DNA from: a virus
Length of the DNA: 64,000 bases
Virus record (IMG/VR): IMGVR_UViG_3300008110_010375
Strand: one strand, 5' to 3'
Below the pieces are notes generated by a model. It saw only the letters and a program-made list of their open reading frames with translations. It did not search any database and was not told the DNA's origin. Made by a program: the position numbers and the translations under genes. Each line of letters begins with the position of its first letter. The stretch's first letter is position 1. Positions 28,553 through 55,212 of the stretch are shown one piece after another.

Positions 28553-29179
28553 CTATATTTTTAGCCTGTTTCTGGCATGGGTGGCGATGAGTTCTGGATT
28601 ACTGGGAAGCATGGGATCATCTTTCTTATACCACCTCTCGCTCTTTTTCAATAAGAACGTGATTCCCAGCTCCTTAGCTAGCTTCTTCGCGTCGTCGATC
28701 TGATGTTCATTGAACTTCATAGGTATGAAAGTCCAAACACATTCTATCCCGCGAATCTTTGCCAGCTTAAATATCTCTAAGTTCTTATAGAAGTCCTTCT
28801 CAGTGAAGTTAACACGATAGATCCCAGCGGTCTCCTTGAATCCATCCATCGCTATGTTTAAAGCATCATTTTTAGTCATGAGCAAGAATATGCTTTTCCA
28901 CCAGTCGAGGGATTTTCCTGAACCGTTTGTGTGAATTTGGATAAAAATGTTGTTTTCTTTAGCGATCTTGACAAGCTCATAGAAGTCTGGATGGTAAATG
29001 CAGTCGCCGTACGTTCCGCCGAAGAACATGCTCCTGTACTTCTTTGATTCACAGATCTTTCTAAACTGATCCACGGGAAAATCGTAGATCTCAAGCTCCT
29101 TTCTTTCTACGAGCCTTGTCCTTATGCACTTAGGACAGGAAAGCCTGCACCTCGTAGAAAGCTCGATGTCAAGATTCAT
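28553..29179 (-). CDS. radical SAM protein, core domain only
   Basis: CxxxCxxC (CRLSCPKC), GTYGD, HTNGS, DG...YR. Confidence 0.88.
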   Translation of the reverse strand: MNLDIELSTRCRLSCPKCIRTRLVERKELEIYDFPVDQFRKICESKKYRSMFFGGTYGDCIYHPDFYELVKIAKENNIFIQIHTNGSGKSLDWWKSIFLLMTKNDALNIAMDGFKETAGIYRVNFTEKDFYKNLEIFKLAKIRGIECVWTFIPMKFNEHQIDDAKKLAKELGITFLLKKSERWYKKDDPMLPSNPELIATHARNRLKI

Positions 29180-37438: not shown

Positions 37439-37974
37439 ACATATTCTACATCAGTGAAGACCCGTTCGAAGCCGCCCAGATGATGGTCGACAAGCACGTG
37501 GTCAAGATGATCCTCGAGTCGGCGCAGCTTCTATCGACCGCGCACCGTCTCATCGACGGCGAGGAATTCGTCGGTCAGTCTCTCTCCGGTCGCAAAGCAA
37601 AGCGCTGGCGTCTTCCAGACTTTCGCGACGCGGTCTTATATCAAGCCACGCACATCAACCACCCGTCGGCGGTCTGGTGTCGCGAGTCCCGCGAGAACTA
37701 CAACTGGCTGTTCAGGCACTTCGCCGCGCTGATGGCCGAGTATACCCATCGCTACGGTAAGCACCACAAGTGCGAGGGTCAGCTCGCTGAGTACTTGATG
37801 CAGTCACCAAACAACATCGCCAAGGGCGGCTTGACCAAGATGCCTTCGGCCATGGCCGACGAGTACAAGATCAGCGACGACCCGTTGACAAACTACAGAA
37901 ACTATTATAAGATCGGTAAATCTAGAATGCATAGATGGACCAAACGCCAACCGCCGGAATGGATAGCAGCATGA
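37435..37974 (+). CDS. pyrimidine-dimer DNA glycosylase/endonuclease V-like protein
   Basis: MNIF...DKHVVKMILESAQLLSTAH, H.NHPSA.W, EYT.RYGK.H. Confidence 0.75.
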   Translation: MNIFYISEDPFEAAQMMVDKHVVKMILESAQLLSTAHRLIDGEEFVGQSLSGRKAKRWRLPDFRDAVLYQATHINHPSAVWCRESRENYNWLFRHFAALMAEYTHRYGKHHKCEGQLAEYLMQSPNNIAKGGLTKMPSAMADEYKISDDPLTNYRNYYKIGKSRMHRWTKRQPPEWIAA

Positions 37975-38372
37975 GCAAAGACTGGGTACACGACATCGCG
38001 ATGATGCATGAGCACTACAAAGTGCATCCCGTCATCGAGAACATGGATAAAGAAACCCTTGAGAAGTTTCTCAAGTTCCGCATCAACTTCCTCAAAGAAG
38101 AACTCGACGAGCTTCGCGACGCTGAGAACGCCGAAGACGTCGTCGACGCGCTCATCGACCTCTGCGTCGTGGCGATCGGTACGCTTGACACCTTCAAGGT
38201 GGACTCACACAAAGCTTGGGACGCGGTTCTGGAAGCCAACATGAACAAGAAGACCGGTGTCAAGGCGAGCCGCCCGAACCCGCTTGGACTTCCAGACCTG
38301 ATCAAGCCGGAAGGCTGGGAGCCCCCAAGCCATTCAAACAATTACGGTTTTTTAAGTAAAATCTTTGGTTGA
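37971..38372 (+). CDS. MazG-like all-alpha NTP pyrophosphohydrolase (candidate dCTPase/dUTPase)
   Basis: EELDE...EDVVDALIDL, V..ANM.K, KPEGW..P. Confidence 0.75.
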   Translation: MSKDWVHDIAMMHEHYKVHPVIENMDKETLEKFLKFRINFLKEELDELRDAENAEDVVDALIDLCVVAIGTLDTFKVDSHKAWDAVLEANMNKKTGVKASRPNPLGLPDLIKPEGWEPPSHSNNYGFLSKIFG

Positions 38373-38438: not shown

Positions 38439-39023
38439 ATGAGTGACCTTGCTACCTACGCCGACAAGATTTTGTCGGCTGAACCTGTAAAAGTCCAAAG
38501 AACAGAAGAGCTAAATAAAAAGTTCACGGATATAGCGAATGAGATTTATCGCTGTCCTTTTCGCAATAAGAATCGTCGTGAATTTAAGACTGTGTTTGAG
38601 TCCGTCGAAAAGATGGTCATTGAACACGCACTATCAAAGCTCACTGGACTTGCGATGAACTGGCAATCTTTTGATCACACCAATCGTGATACATACGCTT
38701 GGGACGTGATTGATCTAGAAACTAAAAAAACTTTTGAGTGCAAGCGCTGGGCCGAGAAGTGGTTTTCATTCAACAATAAAGATATCTCAACGTTCACAAA
38801 AAACATCGACATCATCGACTACTTCGTGTCGGGCAAAGTGTTTCGCACGCCGTCTTTCTATACGGTGGCTTTTCACTTGGTAGCCGACGCGAAGTCGTTC
38901 GAGAAGTATGTTCGCCCATCACAGTACACAACAAAACTGTACTACGATCACCACACGGCTATGAAGAAAGGTGACGCTTTCTTTCGTGACCACGTCTATT
39001 TTGAGAATGGAACAGCAGCATGA
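38439..39023 (+). CDS. denB: endonuclease IV (DenB)-like dC-specific nuclease
   Basis: DTYAWDV...FECK and KYVRPSQY resemble T4 DenB YTYAWDV...VEVK and KVVRKSNY (from memory). Confidence 0.65.
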   Translation: MSDLATYADKILSAEPVKVQRTEELNKKFTDIANEIYRCPFRNKNRREFKTVFESVEKMVIEHALSKLTGLAMNWQSFDHTNRDTYAWDVIDLETKKTFECKRWAEKWFSFNNKDISTFTKNIDIIDYFVSGKVFRTPSFYTVAFHLVADAKSFEKYVRPSQYTTKLYYDHHTAMKKGDAFFRDHVYFENGTAA

Positions 39024-39385
39024 CAGACAAAGAATCCGTGAAAGTGCTTCAAGAGTGCATCGACCTGCAGCTCAAGAAGTCTCAAGACTATCAGAACCCG
39101 AACTCAAACGTGGTTCAAGCCATGCACTACCGCCGCGGCATCGATACGATCCACGACACGCTTCAAGGCAAGCTCTATCGCGCCCAATCGCTTCTTGAGT
39201 CCGGCCGCGCCGACCAAGCGAACTTCGAGTCGCTTGAGGACACGTACAAAGATCTCATCAACTACGCTTCCTTCGCAGTGTCTTGGCTTCGCGGCAAGAT
39301 CGAAGGCCAAGATCCCGAGCGCGACATCTTCAACAAGAAGCGCGAGCAGTCAAAGTACTATTACGAGAAAGATCGCAACAAATGA
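39020..39385 (+). CDS. nucleotide-modification-associated protein (DUF1599/Nmad1-like)
   Basis: KKSQDY, K..R, ESLEDT..DLINYA. Confidence 0.7.
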   Translation: MTDKESVKVLQECIDLQLKKSQDYQNPNSNVVQAMHYRRGIDTIHDTLQGKLYRAQSLLESGRADQANFESLEDTYKDLINYASFAVSWLRGKIEGQDPERDIFNKKREQSKYYYEKDRNK

Positions 39386-40029
39386 TGACGATCGACGAGA
39401 TACGACTTCGCTTCAAGTACGACTACGACCTCGAAGTCTTTGTGACCGATAAGTCAGGCGTCAGGATGCTCGAGATCATGAACGCCAGCTTCATCGCCGA
39501 TCGACCGACGATCTTCGGCACGATCAACGAAGACTACGTCAAGCGCGAGCTTGAGTGGTACGAGTCTATGTCGCGCAACGTCAACGATATTCCCGGCGGG
39601 CCTCCGGCGATCTGGCAGCAGGTCGCGAGCGAGAGCGGTGAGATCAACTCCAACTACGGTTGGTGCATCTGGTCGGACGCGAACTACGCACAGTACGACA
39701 ACGTAGTCGCCGAGCTTCAAAAGAACCCAGAGTCTCGACGCGCGACCATGATCTACACACGCCCAAGTATGTGGCTCGACTACAATCGCGACGGCATGAG
39801 CGACTTCATGTGCACCAACACCGTGCAGTATATGATCCGACACGATCGCCTGCACGCTCTCGTGTACATGCGTTCGAACGACGTCGTGTTCGGCTACAAG
39901 AACGATCGCGCTTGGCAGAAGCACGTGCTCGATCGCCTCTGCGATGAGCTCGGCTACGAGCCCGGAAACATCTACTGGAACGTCGCCTCGCTCCATGTGT
40001 ATGAGAGGCACATCGACCTTGTCCGGTAA
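39382..40029 (+). CDS. 42: dCMP hydroxymethyltransferase gp42
   Basis: RELEWY, GEINSNYGW, SDFMCTNTVQY, MRSNDVVFGYKND (Asp at the dCMP-specificity site), SLHVY; close match to T4 gp42 as remembered. Confidence 0.93.
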   Translation: MMTIDEIRLRFKYDYDLEVFVTDKSGVRMLEIMNASFIADRPTIFGTINEDYVKRELEWYESMSRNVNDIPGGPPAIWQQVASESGEINSNYGWCIWSDANYAQYDNVVAELQKNPESRRATMIYTRPSMWLDYNRDGMSDFMCTNTVQYMIRHDRLHALVYMRSNDVVFGYKNDRAWQKHVLDRLCDELGYEPGNIYWNVASLHVYERHIDLVR

Positions 40030-40519
40030 GTGGATCGATAAGTACTTCAAGCTCGCTGAGCAGGTGTCGAGTTGGTCGAAAGACCCAAGCACCAAGGTCG
40101 GTGCGATCGCCGTCGGCGCGAAGGGTCAGATCCTGTCGCAGGGATACAACGGGTTCCCACGCGGGATCGAGGACAGTGAAGCTCGGCTGAGCGATCGCGG
40201 ACAGAAGTATAAGTTCGTGGTCCACGCCGAGCAGAACTGCATCTACAACGCGACGCTGAACGGGGTCAGCCTGTCAGACGCCGATATGTACATCTGGGGA
40301 CTTCCTCTCTGCTCGGAGTGCGCGAAGGGTGTCATCCAAGTGGGCGTCAAGCGCGTCTTCATGTGCTACCCTTCTGAGATCCCAAGTAAATGGAGCGACT
40401 CGTTCGAGCTGACGGCCGCTATGTTGAATGAAGCTAAAGTTGAGTGGAAGTGCTATGAATCGAGTCTTAGTAGTAGGTATGAACCCGTCGAACACTCCGG
40501 GAACGACGACGGGCGTTGA
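40019..40519 (+). CDS. cd: dCMP deaminase
   Basis: SKDPSTKVG, GYNGFPRG, HAEQN, CSEC; TTG start inferred. Confidence 0.9.
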   Translation: MSGKWIDKYFKLAEQVSSWSKDPSTKVGAIAVGAKGQILSQGYNGFPRGIEDSEARLSDRGQKYKFVVHAEQNCIYNATLNGVSLSDADMYIWGLPLCSECAKGVIQVGVKRVFMCYPSEIPSKWSDSFELTAAMLNEAKVEWKCYESSLSSRYEPVEHSGNDDGR

Positions 40520-40832
40520 GCGCAAGAACTCAACGTTCGATCGCCTGCACAAGTGGTTCGATCACGCCGGCGTTCACTACTTCTCTTTCGTAAATACAAC
40601 CGACAAGCGCGGTGAGATCAAGCCGGTCGACATCGACTGGGATACACTCAAGCTGTGTCTCAAAGGTCACACCAAGATTATTGCACTCGGCGGCTTCGCC
40701 TCGACGGCGCTTGGCAGGCTAAATATAGAACACTACACTTTGCCGCACCCGTCACCTCGCAACAGGAAGTTCAACGACGCGGCCTATGAACCAATGGTCA
40801 TGGAAGACTTGAGAAGGTACGTTACAAAATGA
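40455..40832 (+). CDS. small uracil-DNA-glycosylase-fold protein
   Basis: VVGMNPS, IIALG, LPHPSPRN. Confidence 0.7.
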   Translation: MNRVLVVGMNPSNTPGTTTGVERKNSTFDRLHKWFDHAGVHYFSFVNTTDKRGEIKPVDIDWDTLKLCLKGHTKIIALGGFASTALGRLNIEHYTLPHPSPRNRKFNDAAYEPMVMEDLRRYVTK

Positions 40833-42061
40833 AAGTTGCGATTCTCATGGGACGCGGCATCGAGGGATGCGGCGTCTCTAAGTTTACTATCGAGATGGCG
40901 AAGTACCTGCAGAAGCACGGTCACGAATACGTCGTCATCGCGGCCAAGGACAAGACTTGGTCGCGAAAGAACTCTCATGAGATGCCCAACCTCATGTACA
41001 TCAAGTTCGCCGAGGACGGCGCGGTCGATCACGTTGCCGACGCCTGCAACACCTGCGACTTGGTCGTCATCAACTCGCTGCCTCCGTTCGCCTACAAGAA
41101 GAACTTGAACTACGACGTCAAGGTCGCTGAGAACTTCCGCAAGATACTGCAGAAGATCCAAGCGCCTACGGTGTTGTTTCAACACGACCATAATAAGATC
41201 TCAATCACGCGCAACGACTGCCTTAAGGAATCTATCGAGAAGTCGAAGGCTCTGTTCGCCCACTCACCGACCGGCGACTTCGCGACGGTAGTCGAGTCGC
41301 TGTCTGAAGTCGGCGGGGTGTTAGGGTTCTTTGGCGCTGAGCCTGTGAAGCGTGAGATCTTAAACTTCCAGCCCGGGATGTATTTCGACGAGGTGCGCAA
41401 GAAGTACTGGAAACCCATCGAGCAGACGGACAAGATGTGTCACCGTTGGATCGGCCGCATGGCGCTGTGGAAGGGTCCGCGACTGATGTTCGACTTCCAT
41501 GAGAAGCACCTGCGCAAGATGAACGCGCTGACGATCCTCGAGGGCATGGAGAAGTCGCTGGCTTTCGTCGAGATCAAGCAGAAGTACTCATTCCAGTACT
41601 TCAACACCGAGAACCCCGACAACGTCGACTTTACTAAATACTACGGCGACACCGCGACAGTGTTCTCATTCTACAAGAACCATGAGCTGCTCGAGCGCCT
41701 CTCAAAGTCGGGATACGGGTACCAGCTCTCGCTTCTGGACTCAAGGTACATCAAGCGATCGATCGAGTACACACACTGCGAGGTCGCCGCCGCCGGAGCG
41801 ATTCCAGTCTTTCATCGCGGATACGGCGAAGCCTGCACGCATCGAGTCCTCGGCAAGCCCTTGACAGAATGCGCCGACAGTGGTACAATCTGGCTATCAA
41901 ACGACAACATGGAGCAGTGTGCTGATTTGATCGCGACGCTCAACACAGACGACGGCCTTCGCGACGAGTATCGCGAGAAGGCCTATGAGTTCTATAAATC
42001 ACACCAAGACGCAGACGCTGTCTTCGACGAAGCGTTCAAACTGATCGGAGAGGCGAAATGA
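40829..42061 (+). CDS. agt: DNA alpha-glucosyltransferase
   Basis: MGRGIEGCGVSKF, HDH, IGR...WKG, RSIEYTH.E..A.G.IPVF match T4 alpha-gt as remembered. Confidence 0.9.
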   Translation: MKVAILMGRGIEGCGVSKFTIEMAKYLQKHGHEYVVIAAKDKTWSRKNSHEMPNLMYIKFAEDGAVDHVADACNTCDLVVINSLPPFAYKKNLNYDVKVAENFRKILQKIQAPTVLFQHDHNKISITRNDCLKESIEKSKALFAHSPTGDFATVVESLSEVGGVLGFFGAEPVKREILNFQPGMYFDEVRKKYWKPIEQTDKMCHRWIGRMALWKGPRLMFDFHEKHLRKMNALTILEGMEKSLAFVEIKQKYSFQYFNTENPDNVDFTKYYGDTATVFSFYKNHELLERLSKSGYGYQLSLLDSRYIKRSIEYTHCEVAAAGAIPVFHRGYGEACTHRVLGKPLTECADSGTIWLSNDNMEQCADLIATLNTDDGLRDEYREKAYEFYKSHQDADAVFDEAFKLIGEAK

Positions 42062-43254
42062 AGCACGCAACAATCGTACCGCTCATAGGCGGTGAGACCC
42101 TAGGCTCTGAAAAAGCTTTCGGAAGCCGCCCAGTCTGGCTCGCTTCGTATGAAGCGTTTCAGGCAAACGACAGCCACCTGCTTAACTACTACAACAACGA
42201 GGTTCCGTATCACCTGATCGACAAGGGAAGCTTCCCAACCGAGAAGGTCGACGTCATCAGCACAGTGTGTCCATGCGCCGGCCTGTCGCAGCTGTCGCAC
42301 GGCTTCGGCGACCACAACCCGAACAACAAGTGGATGATCGAGACGGCGAAGTACGTGCTCGGCGAGCTTAAGCCCGAGGTGTTCTGGGGTGAGAACGCCC
42401 CAGGATTCGCAGGCAAGATCGGTGAGAACGTTCGCAACCAAGTGCGCCAGATCGGTCTCGACAACGGATACAGCATGACGGTCTACCGCACGCGCTCGCT
42501 CCTTCACGGGGTGGCGCAGGTGCGCGAGCGAGCTTTCTACTTCTTCTGGCGCGGCGACAAGGTTCCCGTGTTGAACTTCTACCAGCGCGAGCGTCCGACG
42601 ATTGAGGACACGATACTCAGCGTCACGTCTAACTTCCAGATGGATCCGATCAATCCAAAGACTCCGTCGAAGGACGATCCCTACTACCGCTTCATCCTTG
42701 AGCACATACACGGAGGCGTGAGTCATCGCGACTTCTGTAAGAACGTCGAGCCCGCCAAAGCGCGCGGACAGGACGTCTTATCATATATAGAACGCGTGGG
42801 CGTCGACTACGACGAGGTCGCCGAGTGGATGGGAGCCAACGGCTATCCCAAAGAAGTTGAGAAGTGCAAGGGTCGCAAGGCCAAGATTGCGGCCGGCGGA
42901 AACATCATGCGCCGCGGAACCATAGTCCCACGAGACTACATCGGCGCGTTCGTCGGTCACTACCCAATGATGCTGACGCATCCCGTCGAAGACCGCTACA
43001 TAACATACAGGGAAGCCATGACGATCATGGGACTCCCGCAAGACTTTGAGCTGCTCAACCCAAAGAAGAGCGCGAACCACATCTGTCAAAATGTACCAGT
43101 GAGCACCGCACATGACATGGCAACCGAAGTCCGTGAATATCTTGAAGGAAAGCGAGAACTCGTATCGTCTCGTCTCGCTTTCCAATACAACTTCTCTAGA
43201 ACAAATGAGTTTACTGATGAACGAACAACCTCTGCGCTCGATGCCTTCTTCTGA
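42058..43254 (+). CDS. divergent DNA cytosine-C5 methyltransferase-fold protein
   Basis: PC motif IV (CPCAGLS), ENAPG (VI), Q.RER (VIII), R.IT.REA (IX); motif I is IVPLIGG and motif X is CQNV. Confidence 0.75.
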   Translation: MKHATIVPLIGGETLGSEKAFGSRPVWLASYEAFQANDSHLLNYYNNEVPYHLIDKGSFPTEKVDVISTVCPCAGLSQLSHGFGDHNPNNKWMIETAKYVLGELKPEVFWGENAPGFAGKIGENVRNQVRQIGLDNGYSMTVYRTRSLLHGVAQVRERAFYFFWRGDKVPVLNFYQRERPTIEDTILSVTSNFQMDPINPKTPSKDDPYYRFILEHIHGGVSHRDFCKNVEPAKARGQDVLSYIERVGVDYDEVAEWMGANGYPKEVEKCKGRKAKIAAGGNIMRRGTIVPRDYIGAFVGHYPMMLTHPVEDRYITYREAMTIMGLPQDFELLNPKKSANHICQNVPVSTAHDMATEVREYLEGKRELVSSRLAFQYNFSRTNEFTDERTTSALDAFF

Positions 43255-43576
43255 GCTTAAGCACCTTGGGCTGGAAGATGTCGTGGTGAAAAAAAAGGAC
43301 TACAAGTACAACGAAGACCTGTACATTTCAGAAATCGCGGATTATATTGGTAAGACATACGGTGAGCACTACTCGCGGAACAAGTTCCAAGCGACTGAGT
43401 TCATCATAGATTCCGGTCACGGCACCGGCTTCTGCGTCGGCAACGTCCTAAAGTACGCGCAGCGCTATGGGCGCAAGGGCTCACCGGACGACTGGAGGAA
43501 AGACCTCATGAAGGTGATCCACTACGCGATCATCCAGCTTCACGTTCACGATACAACCTACGAGGACGACAAGTGA
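43241..43576 (+). CDS. DUF3310-like nucleotide-modification-associated protein
   Basis: HY...Q..EFI, GFC.GN.LKY..RYG.KG, DL.K..HY; start uncertain. Confidence 0.7.
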   Translation: MPSSELKHLGLEDVVVKKKDYKYNEDLYISEIADYIGKTYGEHYSRNKFQATEFIIDSGHGTGFCVGNVLKYAQRYGRKGSPDDWRKDLMKVIHYAIIQLHVHDTTYEDDK

Positions 43577-43761
43577 ACAAGTTTCTACAATATGTAAAGC
43601 ATTCAAACATACACGTGTCGCTTAGCTTGAATCCGTTCAAGTGGCGCGTTATTATTGATTGTTCTAGACGCAGCGATATGGATCCTGGGCTGTTGCTAGA
43701 TTTTCTAATGATTTTAGGTCCACTAAAGATTGCAATGATCATCGATGACGGGAGTTGGTAA
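43573..43761 (+). CDS. hypothetical protein
   Basis: short ORF coupled to its neighbours. Confidence 0.5.
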   Translation: MNKFLQYVKHSNIHVSLSLNPFKWRVIIDCSRRSDMDPGLLLDFLMILGPLKIAMIIDDGSW

Positions 43762-43763
43762 CG

Positions 43764-44630
43764 ATGGAAATCCAGATTAAAGTTGAAGAGCTGCAGAAGA
43801 AGAAACTCTTCGTGGCTACACCTATGTACGGCGGACAGTGTAACGGCATGTACGCCCGCTCGATGTGTGACCTCACTGCCATGTGCTTGAAGTACGGCAT
43901 CGAGATGCGCTCATACTTCTTGTTCAATGAGTCGCTCATCACTCGAGCCAGAAACTATTGTGTTGACGAATTCCTGCGCTCGGGTTATACTCACCTTATG
44001 TTCGTCGACTCGGACATCGGATTCAATCCCCAAGACGTGCTCGCTCTTCTCGCTCTCCAGACCGACGAGTCTCCATACGACATCATCGGCGGTGCGTACC
44101 CGAAGAAGTGCATCACTTGGGAAAAGATCAAGATGGCCGTCGATAAGGGAGTCGCGGATCAGAACCCAGCGCTTCTTGAAGACTTCGTCGGCGACTTCGT
44201 CTTCAACCCAGTGATGGAGAAGGGCGAAGCTTCCAAGTCGATCAAGCTCGACGAGCCGGCGGAAGTGCTTGAGATCGGTACTGGCTTCATGATGGTTCGC
44301 CGCGCGACCTTCGAGGAGTACGTCAAGAAGTACCCAAACATCATGTACAAGCCCGACCACGTCCGCACCGCTGAGTTCGACGGCACGCGCCGCATCGGCA
44401 TGTACTTCCAAGCCGAGGTCGACCCTGAGTCCGAGCGCTACTTGTCGGAAGACTACCTCTTCTGTCAGAACTCACGCAAGGCCGGAATGAAGGTTTGGCT
44501 CTGCCCATGGATGCACCTGCAGCACGCAGGCTTCTACACCTTCGGCGGCAAGCTCGCGGCTTTGGCATCTATCGGTGCCTCCGCGACGGCAGACCCCGCA
44601 CAGATCGCCGCAACAAAAGCAAAGAAGTGA
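43764..44630 (+). CDS. GT-A fold glycosyltransferase-like protein
   Basis: ATPMYGG, ESLITRARN, FVDSD (DxD), GTGFM, LSEDY.FC. Confidence 0.75.
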   Translation: MEIQIKVEELQKKKLFVATPMYGGQCNGMYARSMCDLTAMCLKYGIEMRSYFLFNESLITRARNYCVDEFLRSGYTHLMFVDSDIGFNPQDVLALLALQTDESPYDIIGGAYPKKCITWEKIKMAVDKGVADQNPALLEDFVGDFVFNPVMEKGEASKSIKLDEPAEVLEIGTGFMMVRRATFEEYVKKYPNIMYKPDHVRTAEFDGTRRIGMYFQAEVDPESERYLSEDYLFCQNSRKAGMKVWLCPWMHLQHAGFYTFGGKLAALASIGASATADPAQIAATKAKK

Positions 44631-44646
44631 TTGGAGACTATACATT

Positions 44647-45309
44647 ATGAAGTTGAGTGACAACACCATCGCGATTCTCAAGAACTTCGCGACCATCAAC
44701 CCGTCGATCCTGGTCCGTCCAGGATCGACACTCTCCACCATCTCACCTCAGAAGTCGATCTTCGCGAAAGCTCCGGTCGAGGAGTCGTTTCCTCGCGAGT
44801 TCGCCATCTATGAGTTGAGCAAGTTCCTCGGCGTCCTCTCGCTCTTCAACGAGCCTGAGATCGAGTTTAAAGAAAAGTCGATGCTCATCAAGTCCGGCAA
44901 GCAGCAGATCAGCTACACATACGCCGAGCCGTCGATGATCGTCGGCGCGCCTGAGAAGGACATCACCTTCCCTGAGCCTGAGATCGACTTCAACATCACT
45001 CAGGAGGAGCTCCAGAAGGTCGTCCGCGCGACCGGCGTCCTCCAAGTTCCAGACGTCAGCATCCAAGGCAACAAGGAGAAGGTTCGCGTCTACGCCATGA
45101 ACGCGAAGAACCCGACCACCGACACCTTCAGCATCGACGTCGGCGAGACCGACAAGCACTTCGACATGATCTTCAAGGCCGAGAACATCATCAAGCTCGT
45201 TCCGGCGAACTACAACGTAAAGATCTCGTCGAAGGGTTTAGCCCTGTACACTTCCGATAAAATAAGTTACTATGTAGCTACTGAGTCCAACAGCAGCTAT
45301 CAGGGGTGA
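44647..45309 (+). CDS. 45: sliding clamp gp45
   Basis: MKLS..TI.ILKNFATIN.SI, FAIYEL..FL. Confidence 0.95.
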   Translation: MKLSDNTIAILKNFATINPSILVRPGSTLSTISPQKSIFAKAPVEESFPREFAIYELSKFLGVLSLFNEPEIEFKEKSMLIKSGKQQISYTYAEPSMIVGAPEKDITFPEPEIDFNITQEELQKVVRATGVLQVPDVSIQGNKEKVRVYAMNAKNPTTDTFSIDVGETDKHFDMIFKAENIIKLVPANYNVKISSKGLALYTSDKISYYVATESNSSYQG

Positions 45310-47065: not shown

Positions 47066-48139
47066 ATGCTGAAGGTGCATCAGGAGTGGGATCCTCTTAA
47101 AGTATGTGTGGTAGGTAAGAACTATCCGCCCGAGTTCTACTCGTTCATGAAGAACGCAAAGATGCGCGATCTCTTTGAGAAGATCGCGCGCGAGACTGAA
47201 GAAGACTACCAATCGCTCATCAAGATCTTAAAGTCGTTCAACGTCGAGGTGCTTCGTCCCGACGTACCGGACGTCGTCCCGCAGGAGTACATCGATCAGA
47301 ACCTACCGATCCCAGCGCCGGTGAGCTCTATCCCGCGCGACCAGATGATCATGATCGGTGAGACGTTCTTTCTCTTCCCGTACTTCAGGGTGAACCAGAA
47401 AGTAAACTGGCGATACGAAGACCAGCGCCAGTTTAAGAACTTCGATGTATGCTGGCAGGGAATCCTTGACTACGTCGCTTCCAAGGGAAACAAAGTCGTC
47501 AACAAGCAGGATGACGAGGACTTAGCGTGGATCAAGGTCAACGGCATCTATAGGATAGGCAAGGACCTGTTCTTTGGATCGAAGGGTGAAATGTCGGACT
47601 GGAGGGTGCTCGACGCGATCGACATAATGAAGAACACATATCTCCAAGACTATACGACGCATGCAGTTACAACAGGCGGACACATCGATGGTGTATTTAG
47701 TCCTCTCAACCCAGGACTGATATTCAGCGCATACGACGCGGAGACATACGAACACACGTTCCCCGACTGGGAGGTGGTGTACTTTGAGCAGAACCGGATG
47801 AACGCCCTTGGCGAGTGGATGTATCTAAAGGAGAAGAACAACGGTAAGTGGTTCATTCCCGGTGTCGCCGACGACGATGAGATAATAGAGTACGTTGAGC
47901 ACTGGCTTCAAGACTGGCTGGGATACGTCGAGGAGACGATCTTTGACGTGAACGTCTTAATGATCGATCCAAAGAACGTCGTGGTTTCATCCTACAACGA
48001 GAAAGCTTTCAAAGCCCTTGAAAGACATGGGATCACGCCCCACATATCCCCTATGAGACACCGGTTCTTCTGGGACGGGGGAGCGCACTGTATAACCGCT
48101 GAGCTCCATCGCGAGGGCGAGAGGAAGACTTTCTTCTGA
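47066..48139 (+). CDS. amidinotransferase (pentein) family protein
   Basis: EWDPLK...VG, PRD, GHIDG, DGGAHC. Confidence 0.85.
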   Translation: MLKVHQEWDPLKVCVVGKNYPPEFYSFMKNAKMRDLFEKIARETEEDYQSLIKILKSFNVEVLRPDVPDVVPQEYIDQNLPIPAPVSSIPRDQMIMIGETFFLFPYFRVNQKVNWRYEDQRQFKNFDVCWQGILDYVASKGNKVVNKQDDEDLAWIKVNGIYRIGKDLFFGSKGEMSDWRVLDAIDIMKNTYLQDYTTHAVTTGGHIDGVFSPLNPGLIFSAYDAETYEHTFPDWEVVYFEQNRMNALGEWMYLKEKNNGKWFIPGVADDDEIIEYVEHWLQDWLGYVEETIFDVNVLMIDPKNVVVSSYNEKAFKALERHGITPHISPMRHRFFWDGGAHCITAELHREGERKTFF

Positions 48140-51553: not shown

Positions 51554-51735
51554 AGTTTCACGAGTACTTAACCTACGCCATCATCGCGTTCATCGTCGTA
51601 GATCTCATCTACAGGCTCTTCAGCCAAGACTGGGGCAACATCGGCCTGTCGATCACAGCCCTCATCGGTTGGTTCTACGTCCAAGGCTACGAGCGTCAGG
51701 AGCGCCTCGAGCGCGAAGCGAAGTTCACGCCTTAA
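51550..51735 (+). CDS. small membrane protein
   Basis: two hydrophobic segments; ATGA overlap. Confidence 0.6.
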   Translation: MKFHEYLTYAIIAFIVVDLIYRLFSQDWGNIGLSITALIGWFYVQGYERQERLEREAKFTP

Positions 51736-52778
51736 TGTATAAGTACGAAGACGTCAGGGTGGTTCACCTTGAGATAACCGGCAAGTGTCAAGCCGGCTGC
51801 TCGATGTGTTCAAGAAACGATGAGACCGACAGCGACATCCTTGTGGCTCCAACCACTGCTGAGCTGAGCTACGAAGACTGTGTCAAGATCTTTCCAAAGG
51901 ACCTGATCAAGCAGCTCAGCGGCATGTATATGTGCGGCAACTACGGCGATCCCATCATCGCCAAGGATACGCTTGAGGTGTTCGAGTACTTTAGGTATGC
52001 TAATCGCGACATGGAGCTGAATATGTACACCAACGGTGGGGCACGATCCCCGACGTGGTGGAAGGACTTGGCCGGAATACTTCAGCACGGAAAAGGAAGG
52101 GTCGTCTTCGCGGTCGATGGTCTTGAGGACACAAATCACATCTACAGGGAGAACGTTCGCTGGAACAACGTCATGTCGTCGGCGAAGGCCTTCATCGCCG
52201 CCGGCGGCGAAGCGCGATGGCACTACTTGGTTTTCAAACACAACGAGCATCAAGTTGAAGAAGCGAGGGAGCTGGCGAAGAAGATGGGATTCGCCTCCTT
52301 CGTCGTCAAGCGAACGAGCAGGTGGCAGGGTCAGACCACGTATAAGCACCTGTCTCAACCTGAGAAGAAGGAATACGTTCACCAAGTCAACAACATCAAG
52401 GCGCAGATCGTTAAGATCTACGGATCATTTGATAACTTTGTGAATAAAACGAGTATAAGTTGTAGGGTGCAGAAGGAGAGGGGCATCTACATAACGGCCG
52501 AGGGGCTCATGGTTCCCTGCTGCTGGCTCGGTGGATCCGCCATCTACGACGCCGATAAGCGCTCATACAAAGAGGGTGAACTGTTTCAACACATGGGCGG
52601 CGATAAAAGCAACATCAACGCTAAGGTTCACGGGATAAAGAAGATCTTAGAGGACGGCTTCTTCGATAAGATAGAGAAGTCGTGGAGCTCAGGCTCCACG
52701 ACCAATGGTAAGCTTAAGACCTGCGCGAAGGTGTGTTCCGTGGATCACGACAACTTCGGCGAGCAATTCATAAAATGA
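51735..52778 (+). CDS. radical SAM protein with C-terminal SPASM/Twitch-like domain
   Basis: CQAGCSMC, CGNYGDP, TNGG, C...IYITAEG..VPCC...CAKVC. Confidence 0.9.
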   Translation: MYKYEDVRVVHLEITGKCQAGCSMCSRNDETDSDILVAPTTAELSYEDCVKIFPKDLIKQLSGMYMCGNYGDPIIAKDTLEVFEYFRYANRDMELNMYTNGGARSPTWWKDLAGILQHGKGRVVFAVDGLEDTNHIYRENVRWNNVMSSAKAFIAAGGEARWHYLVFKHNEHQVEEARELAKKMGFASFVVKRTSRWQGQTTYKHLSQPEKKEYVHQVNNIKAQIVKIYGSFDNFVNKTSISCRVQKERGIYITAEGLMVPCCWLGGSAIYDADKRSYKEGELFQHMGGDKSNINAKVHGIKKILEDGFFDKIEKSWSSGSTTNGKLKTCAKVCSVDHDNFGEQFIK

Positions 52779-54027: not shown

Positions 54028-55212
54028 ATGGTGAACAGTTGGGACGAGTTTCAGCCGCTTCAGGAGTTGGTCCTCGGCAGCTTCTACGACAGGAGCTTCT
54101 TTGAGGATATACGAAACCCTAGGATCAGAGACGTGCTCGTACAGATCGCCGACGAGACGCAGGAAGACCTAGAGAACTTCAAAGAGAAGATGAAGTCACA
54201 CGGAGTCTCAGTTGTGCAGTACACGCCGGAGGAGCTCGGCTACAAGGAGAGCATCCTCGACTACGTCGACATATACGGCAGGCTGAGTCTCGAAGGATCA
54301 AACAAGCACAACTACCCGCTGAAAGCAAACATGCTTCCGGCGCCTCCGCTTGAGCCTCGAGACAACATCATAGTCATGGGAGATAAGATCTTCGTTAGCG
54401 ATCCAACGTACGCTTCTAAGAAGATATCTGAGAAGCTTAAGGAGACTTACGGCGTTGATAGCGTCGACGACTCACTCAGCGACGACAACACCAAGTTTCG
54501 TCGCGGTAGAGAAAACATACTATCTAGACTTAAGCGCACGATGGATCACGACGCCGTCGACCGCATGTCAGACGATGAGATCGATCGACACTCCGCAAGC
54601 ACCATGCTCACCGGCTTCTGCAGCCCTAACTTGACGCGCATAGGCTCAAAGTGCTTGGTCGATGTCGCTCAGACCGAGGACGCCGTACCATTTCTTGAGA
54701 AGAACTACCCTAAGTTCAAGTACGATAAGCTCAACCTAGGCGGACACAACGACAGCATCTTCGGCGTTCTAAAGCCGGGACTCGTCATCGCGTCTAAGTT
54801 CTTAGCCGAGTGCAAGCAGGAGAGCGTGTTTGAGAAGTGGAAGGTCATCTACTTCGACGATCCGGTATGGGACCGCGTCGGTAAGTTCAAGAAGCTGCGC
54901 AGGAAGAACCTAGGCAAGTGGTGGGTTCCCGATCAAGAGGACAACGACGACTTCACCTACTTCGTCGAGTACTTCCTTGAGAACTTAACCGGTCAAGTCG
55001 ATGAGACGGTGTTCGACGTAAACGTATTGGTTATCGACGACAAGCACGTCGTGGTCAACAGCGCGAGCAAGGAGCTGTTCAAGGTTCTACGGGAGAACGG
55101 CATGGAGCCGATCCACTGTCCGATAAGACACAGGTTCTTCTTCGACGGCGGATGGCACTGCTTGACGCTCGACACCATAAGGAAGGGGGAGCAGGTTGAT
55201 TACGGAATTTAA
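54028..55212 (+). CDS. second amidinotransferase (pentein) family protein
   Basis: NSWDEFQPL...LG, PRD, GHNDS, DGGWHC. Confidence 0.85.
   Translation: MVNSWDEFQPLQELVLGSFYDRSFFEDIRNPRIRDVLVQIADETQEDLENFKEKMKSHGVSVVQYTPEELGYKESILDYVDIYGRLSLEGSNKHNYPLKANMLPAPPLEPRDNIIVMGDKIFVSDPTYASKKISEKLKETYGVDSVDDSLSDDNTKFRRGRENILSRLKRTMDHDAVDRMSDDEIDRHSASTMLTGFCSPNLTRIGSKCLVDVAQTEDAVPFLEKNYPKFKYDKLNLGGHNDSIFGVLKPGLVIASKFLAECKQESVFEKWKVIYFDDPVWDRVGKFKKLRRKNLGKWWVPDQEDNDDFTYFVEYFLENLTGQVDETVFDVNVLVIDDKHVVVNSASKELFKVLRENGMEPIHCPIRHRFFFDGGWHCLTLDTIRKGEQVDYGI

Follow-up and report, generated by a model that had tools for sequence, protein, structure and literature searches.

What does an enzyme of the cytosine-C5 DNA methyltransferase fold do in a phage whose cytosines should already be occupied at C5? 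The question is raised by one gene, here called MT, in the 64,000-nucleotide stretch of viral DNA that was analysed as a whole (the window):

42058..43254, + strand: C5-methyltransferase-fold gene (MT), 398 aa, of the phage-only 'PLIGG/QNVP' clade (PF00145, AF2 model, dN/dS)

MT is a genuine gene, strongly constrained by purifying selection (dN/dS 0.06-0.08). Its fold, proposed earlier from the sequence, is confirmed by both profile and structure comparisons. The open reading frame matches the PF00145 profile at 69.5 bits, against a cut-off (Pfam gathering score) of 22, with residues 10-357 mapping to profile positions 10-321. The AF2 model (pLDDT 95.1) has the two-domain architecture of the canonical enzymes and superimposes on M.HaeIII (1dct; Z 26.3, rmsd 3.0, 275 aligned residues) and on M.HhaI (Z 25.6), both matches spanning residues 1-365. 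The recognition insert, residues 170-300, is largely helical in the model.

The expectation that C5 is occupied comes from the module around MT, whose genes include:

37935..38372, + strand: MazG-like NTP pyrophosphohydrolase, candidate dCTPase (phrog_671, 1.6e-18)
39382..40029, + strand: gp42-type dCMP hydroxymethylase, i.e. 5hmdCMP synthase (3e-89 to PDB 1b5e, the T4 dCMP hydroxymethylase)
39944..40519, + strand: dCMP deaminase (PF00383, 1e-16; phrog_174, 9.7e-38)
40428-40832: UDG-fold gene of the same module
40829..42061, + strand: alpha-glucosyltransferase homologue (AGT), 410 aa (PF11440, 254 bits; phrog_2888, 1.9e-103)
43241..43576, + strand: DUF3310 protein (PF11753, 3.1e-09); with its likely start at 43241 it shares 14 nt with the end of MT, stop included, and alignments with its homologues begin only near residue 47-67 of the long open reading frame
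43755..44630, + strand: phrog_1574 protein (1.6e-65), a conserved downstream partner and possible GT-A glycosyltransferase

The gp42 orthologue, about 65% identical to that of T4, keeps the catalytic Cys and has Asp at the positions of ThyA N177 and D169, as well as an acidic residue at that of L143; in the alignment with 1b5e the pattern (...RSND...KND...) is identical to T4. Asp at N177 and Asp, not Asn, at D169 are the marks of a dCMP hydroxymethylase (PMC13326640), and the RB69-type 5-hydroxycytosine pathway is rejected for the window on the second of them. With the AGT homologue and the MazG-like gene, this bears out the earlier assignment of a hydroxymethylcytosine (hmC) pathway, which is pre-replicative. 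The MazG-like gene is present in 43/43 fully spanned modules, and gp42 is likewise found in every spanned module. The module further resembles the T4 pathway (gp42, gp56 dCTPase, alpha- and beta-glucosyltransferases) in its dCMP deaminase and in adjoining gp45/44/62/regA; T4, in contrast, has no C5-methyltransferase-fold gene, while the module here has a MazG-like NTP pyrophosphatase and a variable sugar cassette.

In the window the ATG of MT overlaps the TGA of AGT as ATGA at 42058-42061. This coupling, which the earlier note had pointed out, stands for the window but does not hold as a general rule: of the 80 loci anchored on MT, only some 30 have AGT before MT (16/37 of the MT-containing fully spanned modules), and the remaining loci have other sugar cassettes in that place. 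Among relatives these cassettes include Glf, epimerase, NTP-transferase, inositol-1-P synthase and HMUDK-like genes. The phrog_1574 protein, which also has a weak match to a glycosyltransferase PHROG, is encoded in most fully spanned MT loci, and its gene doubles as the downstream anchor for choosing spanned modules.

A different route to sugar-modified 5hmC is known from TET-coupled phage C5-methyltransferases, which are GpC-specific (PMC8256090). Like MT, they are phage-specific and clustered with DNA glycosyltransferases. They make 5mC, which an adjoining TET enzyme oxidises (PMC8256090), whereas here 5hmC comes from gp42. No Tet_JBP gene (PF12851, E<=1) is found in five large relatives (G001-G005, four of them at least 90% complete), S-TIM54, XG4 and phage G. 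With a true gp42 present and no Tet_JBP in near-complete relatives, a post-replicative methyltransferase-TET-glycosyltransferase route is rejected, and MT is set apart from the TET-coupled enzymes by gene content. The proposal that MT guards leftover cytosine from DenB has no basis in the window either: the stretch at 38439-39023, considered as a DenB-like nuclease, has no Pfam or PHROG match and no tblastn match in 50,697 phage records.

The motifs of MT fall into a retained catalytic set and an altered cofactor set:

42073..42093, + strand: variant motif I, IVPLIGG (residues 6-12; canonical F-x-G-x-G-G), placed by hhalign to E. coli Dcm
42142..42153, + strand: end of beta-2, A-S-Y-E, with Ser30 at the position of the motif II ribose-binding acid, followed by the aromatic Tyr31
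42220..42222, + strand: Asp55, probable motif III contact to adenine N6, after strand 51-53
42268..42288, + strand: motif IV, CPCAGLS (residues 71-77; PC is 72-73), with catalytic Cys73, followed by Ala74 instead of the Q of PCQ
42388..42405, + strand: motif VI, GENAPG (residues 111-116); Glu112 is retained and Ala114 replaces the V of ENV
42517..42531, + strand: motif VIII, QVRER (residues 154-158)
43084..43098, + strand: variant motif X, CQNVP (residues 343-347); Gln344 is at the HhaI Asn304 / CmoX Arg350 position

The intact PC, EN and QxRxR motifs reported before are indeed there: P72-C73, E112 and Q154/R156/R158 are each 90-100% conserved among 129 cluster representatives (C73 99%, Q154 98%, and E112, R156 and R158 100%). 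The motif IX Arg and the motif order are also common to MT and the canonical enzymes. The two deviations described in the same place hold as well. In motif I, hhalign sets L-F-A-G-I-G-G of Dcm opposite I-V-P-L-I-G-G of MT, such that MT lacks both the Phe and the first Gly (V-P-L-I-G-G); in motif X, HMMER sets I-G-N-A-V-P-V of HaeIII opposite I-C-Q-N-V-P-V, and MT has C-Q-N-V instead of G-N-(A/S)-V, whose Asn lies beside the transferred methyl. The residues P8, L9, G11, G12, Q344, N345 and V346 are each 96-98% conserved among the representatives (about 97% for the four of motif I, 98% for Q344 and 96% for N345). Since these representatives are only 31-61% identical to the query MT, the deviations are not due to chance.

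Three further positions add to these. The end of beta-2 is a DSSP strand at residues 28-30 of the model, and MAFFT places S30-Y31 opposite E-W of the canonical enzymes; residue 30 is S in 90% and T in 7% of representatives, with no conserved acid at 29-33 (the register being uncertain by one residue). Ala74 is conserved at 83% (S in 12%) and Ala114 at 95%. Asp55, D in 70% of representatives, is from its position the probable adenine-N6 contact. For a canonical baseline, motifs were tallied by regex in 29 bacterial PF00145 proteins plus E. coli Dcm: F.G.GG-type motif I and GN[AS/G] are present in most, PCQ in 27/29 and ENV in 28/29, the misses being partly due to open reading frame starts, and in the N-terminal alignment nearly every aligned row closes beta-2 with E or D. 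Thus five near-invariant positions of C5-methyltransferases, namely: motif I, the motif II Glu (to Ser30), PCQ (to PCA), ENV (to ENA) and motif X, are swapped in the clade, and the replacements are equally fixed. In addition, the sampled bacterial enzymes score roughly 100-340 bits against PF00145, compared to 69.5 for MT, and the clade profile aligns to HhaI and HaeIII only from about position 40-63 onward. By homology, the five replaced residues would line the cofactor and C5 chamber, and the comparison supports a cofactor site altered more deeply than had been noticed before Ser30, Ala74 and Ala114 were added.

The closest characterised relative of MT with altered chemistry is CmoX, which uses Cx-SAM and has a GpC-like specificity. 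SpCmoX of Synechococcus phage S-B43 is a DNA cytosine C5-carboxymethyltransferase (PDB 8yf3), whose Arg350, the counterpart of HhaI Asn304, selects Cx-SAM; changing it to Asn (R350N) abolishes activity (PMC12783734). Among PDB sequences this entry ranks third against the clade profile (2.7e-14, covering part of the recognition insert) and gives a structural Z of 23.6 with MT. Both are phage enzymes of the same fold, with a small residue after PC (SPPCS in SpCmoX), a ...H-x-x-E-D-R... segment and part of the recognition insert in common; in SpCmoX the transferred group was altered by replacing HhaI Asn304, and MT differs there too. It is conceivable, though unlikely, that MT is an alkyltransferase of this kind, using some other SAM-derived donor to place a group larger than methyl on an unsubstituted C5, with Gln344/Asn345 reading the group: the selector position, Arg350 in SpCmoX (PMC12783734), is an invariant Gln in the clade. 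However, that position has no basic residue, MT has CPCA and not SPPC, and an unsubstituted cytosine would still be required. SpCmoX, moreover, obtains Cx-SAM from a phage CmoA, whereas no CmoA (TIGR00740) is present in G001-G005, and no other donor-synthase candidate was recognised. CmoX retains Phe25, Glu47 and Asp69 for adenosine (PMC12783734), while the clade has changed two of the three, i.e. the Phe and the Glu. Finally, SpCmoX acts on ordinary cytosine in a phage without gp42, and MT is found in an hmC context. Cx-SAM itself, with neither CmoA in the five relatives nor the Arg selector in MT, is rejected as the donor.

The other distinctive feature of MT lies at its very end:

43231..43251, + strand: C-terminal tail SALDAFF, probable gp45 sliding-clamp binding motif, by likeness to the polymerase tail
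44647..45309, + strand: gp45 sliding clamp homologue (synteny with gp44/gp62/regA), the putative docking partner of the MT tail

The DNA polymerase in the window ends in ...KKASIESFF, and the last seven residues of MT resemble its ASIESFF; polymerases of five relatives end in IEGFFG, LESFFG, LEDFFG, LESFFG and LDDWF. The tail motif occurs in 94 of 120 close MT homologues, as opposed to 0.9% of shuffled tails. DNMT1, another cytosine-C5 enzyme with a short clamp-interaction motif, is tethered to PCNA; in MT the motif is at the extreme C-terminus and fits the pattern [ST]-[LI]-[DE]-x-F-F of phage polymerases such as those of T4 and RB69, with their C-terminal clamp-binding tail. Unlike in these cases, gp45 binding by MT is predicted from sequence mimicry only, and the motif fades in distant clade members (21/129). 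MT thus presumably mimics the clamp-binding tail of the polymerase, a likeness from which we infer that it probably acts on newly replicated phage DNA.

The diverged cofactor motifs combined with this tail could also describe a non-catalytic protein, i.e. a clamp-bound, base-flipping DNA-binding factor. We regard this as very improbable. Across homologues down to 30% identity, Cys73, Glu112, Arg156 and Arg158 remain 99-100% conserved, and the residues of the rebuilt pocket are no less fixed, which argues for a ligand and chemistry. We hold it highly probable that MT is a functional enzyme, in a branch of the cytosine-C5 DNA methyltransferase fold that is confined to phages.

The tail also bears on what the substrate is. 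An occupied C5 would make the phage DNA immune by default, and MT could then be directed at RNA or at the host chromosome, the only abundant cytosine-containing DNA in the cell, where it would mark, deaminate or trap host cytosines. C5-methyltransferases starved of SAM deaminate cytosine, and the module contains the UDG-fold gene. The polymerase-like tail, however, suggests a DNA substrate that carries the phage clamp, the UDG-like gene shows no co-variation with MT, and no RNA-methyltransferase features were found in MT, such that we hold action on host DNA or RNA to be distinctly improbable. The presence of MT likewise has no informative correlation with that of the MazG-like or DUF3310 genes.

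MT is an accessory gene, an optional add-on of the hmC and sugar module. It is present in 27/36 related modules, and one relative that is 99% complete (G006) has no PF00145 gene at all. Four loci (L120, L121, L142 and L167) lack MT although they carry the four-gene cassette found in L069 and L067; together with G006 they lead us to reject MT as an obligatory step of the sugar pathway. Another locus, L094, has tandem MT paralogues.

Among the loci sampled, the clade is found in phages only and with no adjoining restriction enzyme; its members in metaviromes number in the thousands, and ESM Atlas matches are MT's own viral clusters only. Two IMG/VR scans (P0254 and P0236) gave no useful matches and another scan (P0270) gave only distant loci. 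A bacterial restriction-modification origin or context is rejected: a scan of genome contigs, which used one N-terminal peptide pattern and had low sensitivity, returned only six loci, of which four carry the module of the window on phage contigs that had been binned into MAGs, one (L100) with a T4-like polB and a modification cassette, and one (L099) only 1.2 kb long. Weak tblastn matches in cultured phages (the GAP161/RB16 group, ICP1 and Vibrio 1.161.O) are canonical-motif methyltransferases outside the clade. GAP161, a T4-like phage with ordinary cytosine, has canonical LCAGVGG, TSE, PCQ, ENV and GNSV motifs and only a true thymidylate synthase. The clade itself adjoins a dCMP-specific thymidylate-synthase homologue in the window group, in Pseudoalteromonas phage XG4 and in the group of cyanophage S-TIM5, and a more distant variant in Bacillus phage G is also beside such a homologue.

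Which reaction, then, would a clamp-docked enzyme with a rebuilt cofactor site catalyse? The most likely single reading, to which we give tentative preference, is that MT still moves a one-carbon group from a SAM-type donor onto C5 of those cytosines that pre-replicative hydroxymethylation has missed. The tail would dock on the gp45 clamp and let MT scan newly replicated phage DNA; Glu112 and Arg156/158 would hold a cytosine-type base while Cys73 attacks C6. Cytosines in DNA synthesised before the hm-dCTP pool is established would be one example of such escapees, and their modification would add a back-up protective layer. The conserved catalytic residues, the purifying selection and the clamp tail are all consistent with this, as are the contacts compatible with an adenosyl group that remain (Tyr/Phe/Trp31, Asp55 and the G11-G12 loop). 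Every member of the fold characterised so far uses SAM or Cx-SAM (PMC12783734, PMC8256090). The accessory distribution is typical of protective phage methyltransferases, and the tandem paralogues fit enzymes of different site specificities. Against it, little unsubstituted cytosine is expected, because the MazG-like pyrophosphatase and gp42 are in every spanned module. Furthermore, in several lineages of hmC phages the rebuilt clade is the only one present (in phage G its distant variant), although canonical enzymes exist in T4-like phages with ordinary cytosine, such as GAP161, and plain mopping-up would not call for a rebuilt enzyme. The losses in motifs I and II (ribose-binding acid, stacking Phe and first Gly) and the late start of the alignment to HhaI and HaeIII also weigh against an ordinary methylase.

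It is possible, if doubtful, that MT acts instead on 5hmC itself, making a new 5-substituted cytosine at chosen sites or removing the hydroxymethyl group site-specifically. Cys73 would add to C6 of nascent, unglycosylated 5hmC, loss of the hydroxyl would give an exocyclic-methylene intermediate, to which a nucleophile or reductant would then add from the rebuilt pocket that once bound SAM. The clamp-carried MT would thus use a non-SAM ligand in covalent C6 catalysis to exchange or remove the hydroxymethyl oxygen; direct hydroxymethylation of DNA cytosine is a variant of the same idea. The adjoining dCMP-specific thymidylate-synthase homologues favour it, as do the loss of the ribose acid and stacking Phe and the small residues that stand where canonical enzymes have the PCQ Gln and the ENV Val, and that by homology would leave more room around C5; the clamp tail would allow MT to reach nascent hmC before the glycosyltransferases. 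The in-vitro precedents invoked in the earlier note are real: C5-methyltransferases, M.SssI among them, attach thiols to 5hmC (PMC7176277), and 5hmC bound covalently by M.MpeI loses CH2O (dehydroxymethylation) and is then re-methylated (PMC11347137). On the other side, no natural enzyme of such a kind is known, the pocket residues are assigned by homology, and Asp55 and the aromatic residue 31 still resemble an adenine site. MT is also dispensable in a quarter of related modules with identical sugar cassettes, so the glycosylation pathway does not include it as a step.

Phage DNA hypermodification increasingly supplies new chemistry and enzymes for reading the epigenome, e.g. T4 BGT, phage TETs, CmoX and 5mC-selective deaminases. 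The clade of MT sits in the best-known modification pathway, that of gp42 and glycosyltransferases, yet no description of it was found in the literature searched. Its altered chamber positions are those that engineers mutate to change cofactor use, and one of them is the same position that nature changed in CmoX. A new base or a 5hmC-selective tool would follow if MT proved to use a new donor or to act on 5hmC; action on 5hmC with a non-SAM ligand would mean a natural cytosine derivative or editing reaction that has yet to be described. If MT is a plain methylase, it would mean that hmC phages keep a clamp-coupled back-up layer of protection.

The window derives from a T4-like myovirus (G+C 51.5%) and carries T4-like genes that include the major head protein, portal-region genes, gp46/47, gp55, UvsX/Y, the gp43 polymerase, gp41 and the gp45/44/62/regA block. 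The features considered here are:

28553-29179, - strand: radical-SAM-domain gene (phrog_21308)
37935-38372: MazG-like NTP pyrophosphohydrolase
38439-39023, + strand: 194-aa ORF, flanked by the MazG-like gene and DUF1599
39382-40029: gp42 orthologue of the T4 dCMP hydroxymethylase type (3e-89 to PDB 1b5e)
40428-40832, + strand: small UDG-superfamily protein, 134 aa, with GMNPS and HPSPRN motifs
42058-43254, + strand: C5-methyltransferase-fold gene (MT), 398 aa, PF00145 match
43112-43576, + strand: long DUF3310 ORF, overlapping the MT gene by 143 nt
47066-48139, + strand: phrog_25854 paralogue
51735-52778, + strand: second radical-SAM-domain gene (phrog_21308)
54028-55212, + strand: second phrog_25854 paralogue

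MT scores 69.5 bits against PF00145 in a Pfam profile search, and its AlphaFold2 model (pLDDT 95.1, pTM 0.92) matches the structures of M.HaeIII (Z 26.3) and M.HhaI (Z 25.6, with residues 1-365 of the model aligned to 12-325 of the chain), as well as those of DNMT1 and the phage C5-carboxymethyltransferase CmoX (Z 23.6). Its dN/dS against the two closest relatives is 0.06 and 0.08, and MT is therefore a real gene under selection. As the earlier note had it, MT is coupled to an alpha-glucosyltransferase (AGT) by ATGA, its ATG overlapping the TGA of the upstream AGT homologue (PF11440, 254 bits).

The motifs first read from the sequence are all present in MT: IVPLIGG (residues 6-12), PC (72-73), ENA (112-114), QVRER (154-158) and CQNV (343-346). 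Conservation was measured in 129 full-length representatives that are 31-61% identical to MT. The catalytic C73 (99%), E112 (100%), R156 and R158 (both 100%) are retained, and so are the unusual residues: P8, L9, G11 and G12 of motif I (each about 97%), Ser (90%) or Thr (7%) at position 30 followed by an aromatic residue, Ala (83%) or Ser (12%) at position 74, A114 (95%), Q344 (98%) and N345 (96%). The canonical baseline was drawn from 151 bacterial genomes, which supplied 29 PF00145 proteins, with E. coli Dcm added. In a regex tally, where some misses are due to ORF starts, PCQ occurs in 27/29 and ENV in 28/29, and most have an F.G.GG-type motif I and G-N-(A/S/G). IVPLIGG lies opposite LFAGIGG of Dcm in hhalign. 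Beta-2 of the MT model terminates at Ser30 according to DSSP, and MAFFT sets S30-Y31 opposite the canonical E-W; an E or D ends beta-2 in nearly all canonical rows of the N-terminal alignment. Thus, at five positions that are near-invariant in C5-methyltransferases the clade has a different but equally invariant residue, with no change to the catalytic ones. We take these positions to correspond to HhaI G20 (with F18), E40, Q82, V121 and N304, which by homology would surround the cofactor and the flipped base's C5. A whole-library HMMER search with MT returned 808 clusters at E<=1e-3 (241 at E<=1e-30), so ordinary C5-methyltransferases are mostly out of reach of its sequence. Some clade proteins carry long fused C-terminal extensions, namely P0199 (598 aa), P0203 (1462 aa) and P0182 (768 aa), and one of the three has a CXXC zinc finger, a reader of unmethylated CpG in eukaryotes.

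This rebuilt chamber favours either chemistry on 5hmC itself or the use of another donor. In CmoX, Arg350 at the HhaI Asn304 position binds the carboxyl of Cx-SAM, so that the group transferred by this fold has been altered at that very residue (PMC12783734). CmoX is the third-best PDB match of the clade profile, part of the recognition insert included, and shares with the clade a small residue after PC; however, the clade has an invariant Gln in place of Arg350 and no longer has the stacking Phe or the ribose-binding Glu, both kept in CmoX. The in-vitro precedents invoked for 5hmC chemistry hold for ordinary C5-methyltransferases, which can couple thiols to 5hmC (PMC7176277) or release formaldehyde from it before re-methylating the base (PMC11347137). 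The prior from all characterised members of the fold favours another donor or SAM-dependent methylation of cytosines that escaped hydroxymethylation. We consider this methylation plausible at somewhat below an even chance.

From the MazG-like gene onwards, the module encodes a DUF1599/Nmad1 protein, dCMP deaminase, the small UDG-fold protein, AGT, MT, the DUF3310 protein and a phrog_1574 protein, followed by gp45. In the window's gp42 the catalytic Cys is kept, the ThyA-N177 position is occupied by Asp, which marks dCMP specificity, and the L143 position is acidic. Its D169 position, which separates 5hmdCMP synthases from newly found 5-hydroxy-dCMP synthases (a 2026 paper; PMC13326640), is Asp, not Asn. 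Searches of five large relatives, of which four are at least 90% complete, gave neither Tet_JBP nor CmoA. Together with the gp42 signature, this indicates pre-replicative, T4-like synthesis of 5hmC. The observation of the earlier note is confirmed and its interpretation is borne out in part: the hmC context and the remodelling are real, and the enzyme may be repurposed. Its argument that methylation protects residual cytosine from DenB is left without support: ORF 38439-39023, the DenB-like candidate, has no Pfam or PHROG match and no tblastn match in phage records. This ORF is missing from the closest relatives (loci L001 and L002) yet present in 5/6 MT-less modules, and so is a variable insert. 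The UDG-superfamily protein is missing from some relatives, though many have it, and its presence does not track that of MT. DUF3310 homologues match the long ORF only from around residue 47-67 onwards; with ATG 43241 as its start, the gene would overlap the MT stop by 14 nt, which would amount to translational coupling.

More than 2,352 metagenome homologues of MT were found. Across 80 IMG/VR loci the order is constant: gp42, dCMP deaminase, (UDG-like), a variable stretch of 1.2-5.4 kb, MT, (DUF3310), phrog_1574 and gp45. Coupling to AGT is not general: AGT occupies the variable stretch in about 30/80, and the others carry sugar-nucleotide genes and glycosyltransferases (UDP-galactopyranose mutase, epimerase, NTP-transferase, inositol-1-phosphate synthase, HMUDK-like genes). 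A cassette of myo-inositol-1-phosphate synthase, FkbM-type methyltransferase and 5-hmdU DNA kinase helical-domain protein adjoins MT in some relatives (L054:5047-8395, L100:7936-11204 and L076) and hints at a phospho- or inositol-type hydroxymethyl decoration.

The pairing with gp42 or a related thymidylate synthase homologue extends to distant lineages. In Pseudoalteromonas phage XG4, MT is 32% identical; an NTP-transferase and a glycosyltransferase separate it from gp42, 5 kb upstream. In S-TIM5 cyanophages, a protein encoded two genes from MT and annotated as "ThyA" carries Asp at the N177 position; the one in S-TIM54 (L087:5114-5956, - strand), with Asp at E. coli ThyA N177 and Cys at L143, probably acts on dCMP (forming 5mdCMP or 5hmdCMP) rather than as a thymidylate synthase. 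More remotely, Bacillus phage G gp301 is 25% identical to MT, outside the PLIGG signature, and lies about 3 kb from the AGT homologue gp306. A second thymidylate synthase homologue of phage G (L180:1501-2208; 233481-234188), some 13 kb from gp301, has the N177D and L143D signature of dCMP hydroxymethylases; these three genes suggest that phage G may produce glucosyl-hmC. In contrast to the clade, the C5-methyltransferase of GAP161, a T4-like phage with ordinary cytosine, is fully canonical, and its sole thymidylate synthase homologue is genuine. With one peptide pattern as query, the six matches in 185,579 species genomes were phage or phage-like contigs binned into MAGs. Confinement to phages that pre-modify C5 again favours 5hmC chemistry, which we nevertheless regard as rather unlikely, or another donor, which we hold to be improbable; further readings share what is left.

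A second locus search was anchored on gp42 instead of MT. Among 36 loci spanning gp42 to phrog_1574/gp45, MT is present in 27 and absent from 9. Four MT-less loci share a four-gene cassette with MT-containing relatives at up to 91% identity, and one MT-less genome, 99% complete, lacks PF00145 genes altogether. MT is therefore dispensable for hmC synthesis or glycosylation. One gp42 module carries tandem MT paralogues (L094:10010-11158 and L094:11215-12414; 32% and 51% identical to MT).

The extreme C-terminus of the T4 and RB69 polymerases is the gp45-binding peptide. In the window, MT ends in SALDAFF and the DNA polymerase in KKASIESFF; the polymerases of five relatives end in IEGFFG, LESFFG, LEDFFG, LESFFG and LDDWF, and MT homologues in TLEAFI, TLEEFI, TLEGFF and similar. 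The motif is found in 94/120 close and 21/129 distant MT homologues, and in 0.9% of shuffled tails. This polymerase-like tail suggests that MT may dock on the sliding clamp and act on newly replicated phage DNA, which would make the host chromosome a less likely target. The product of 47066-48139 ends in ERKTFF, possibly a further clamp-type tail.

No description of this clade was found in the literature searched. The clade is widespread and represents an enzyme of known fold in altered form, whose reaction is directly testable.
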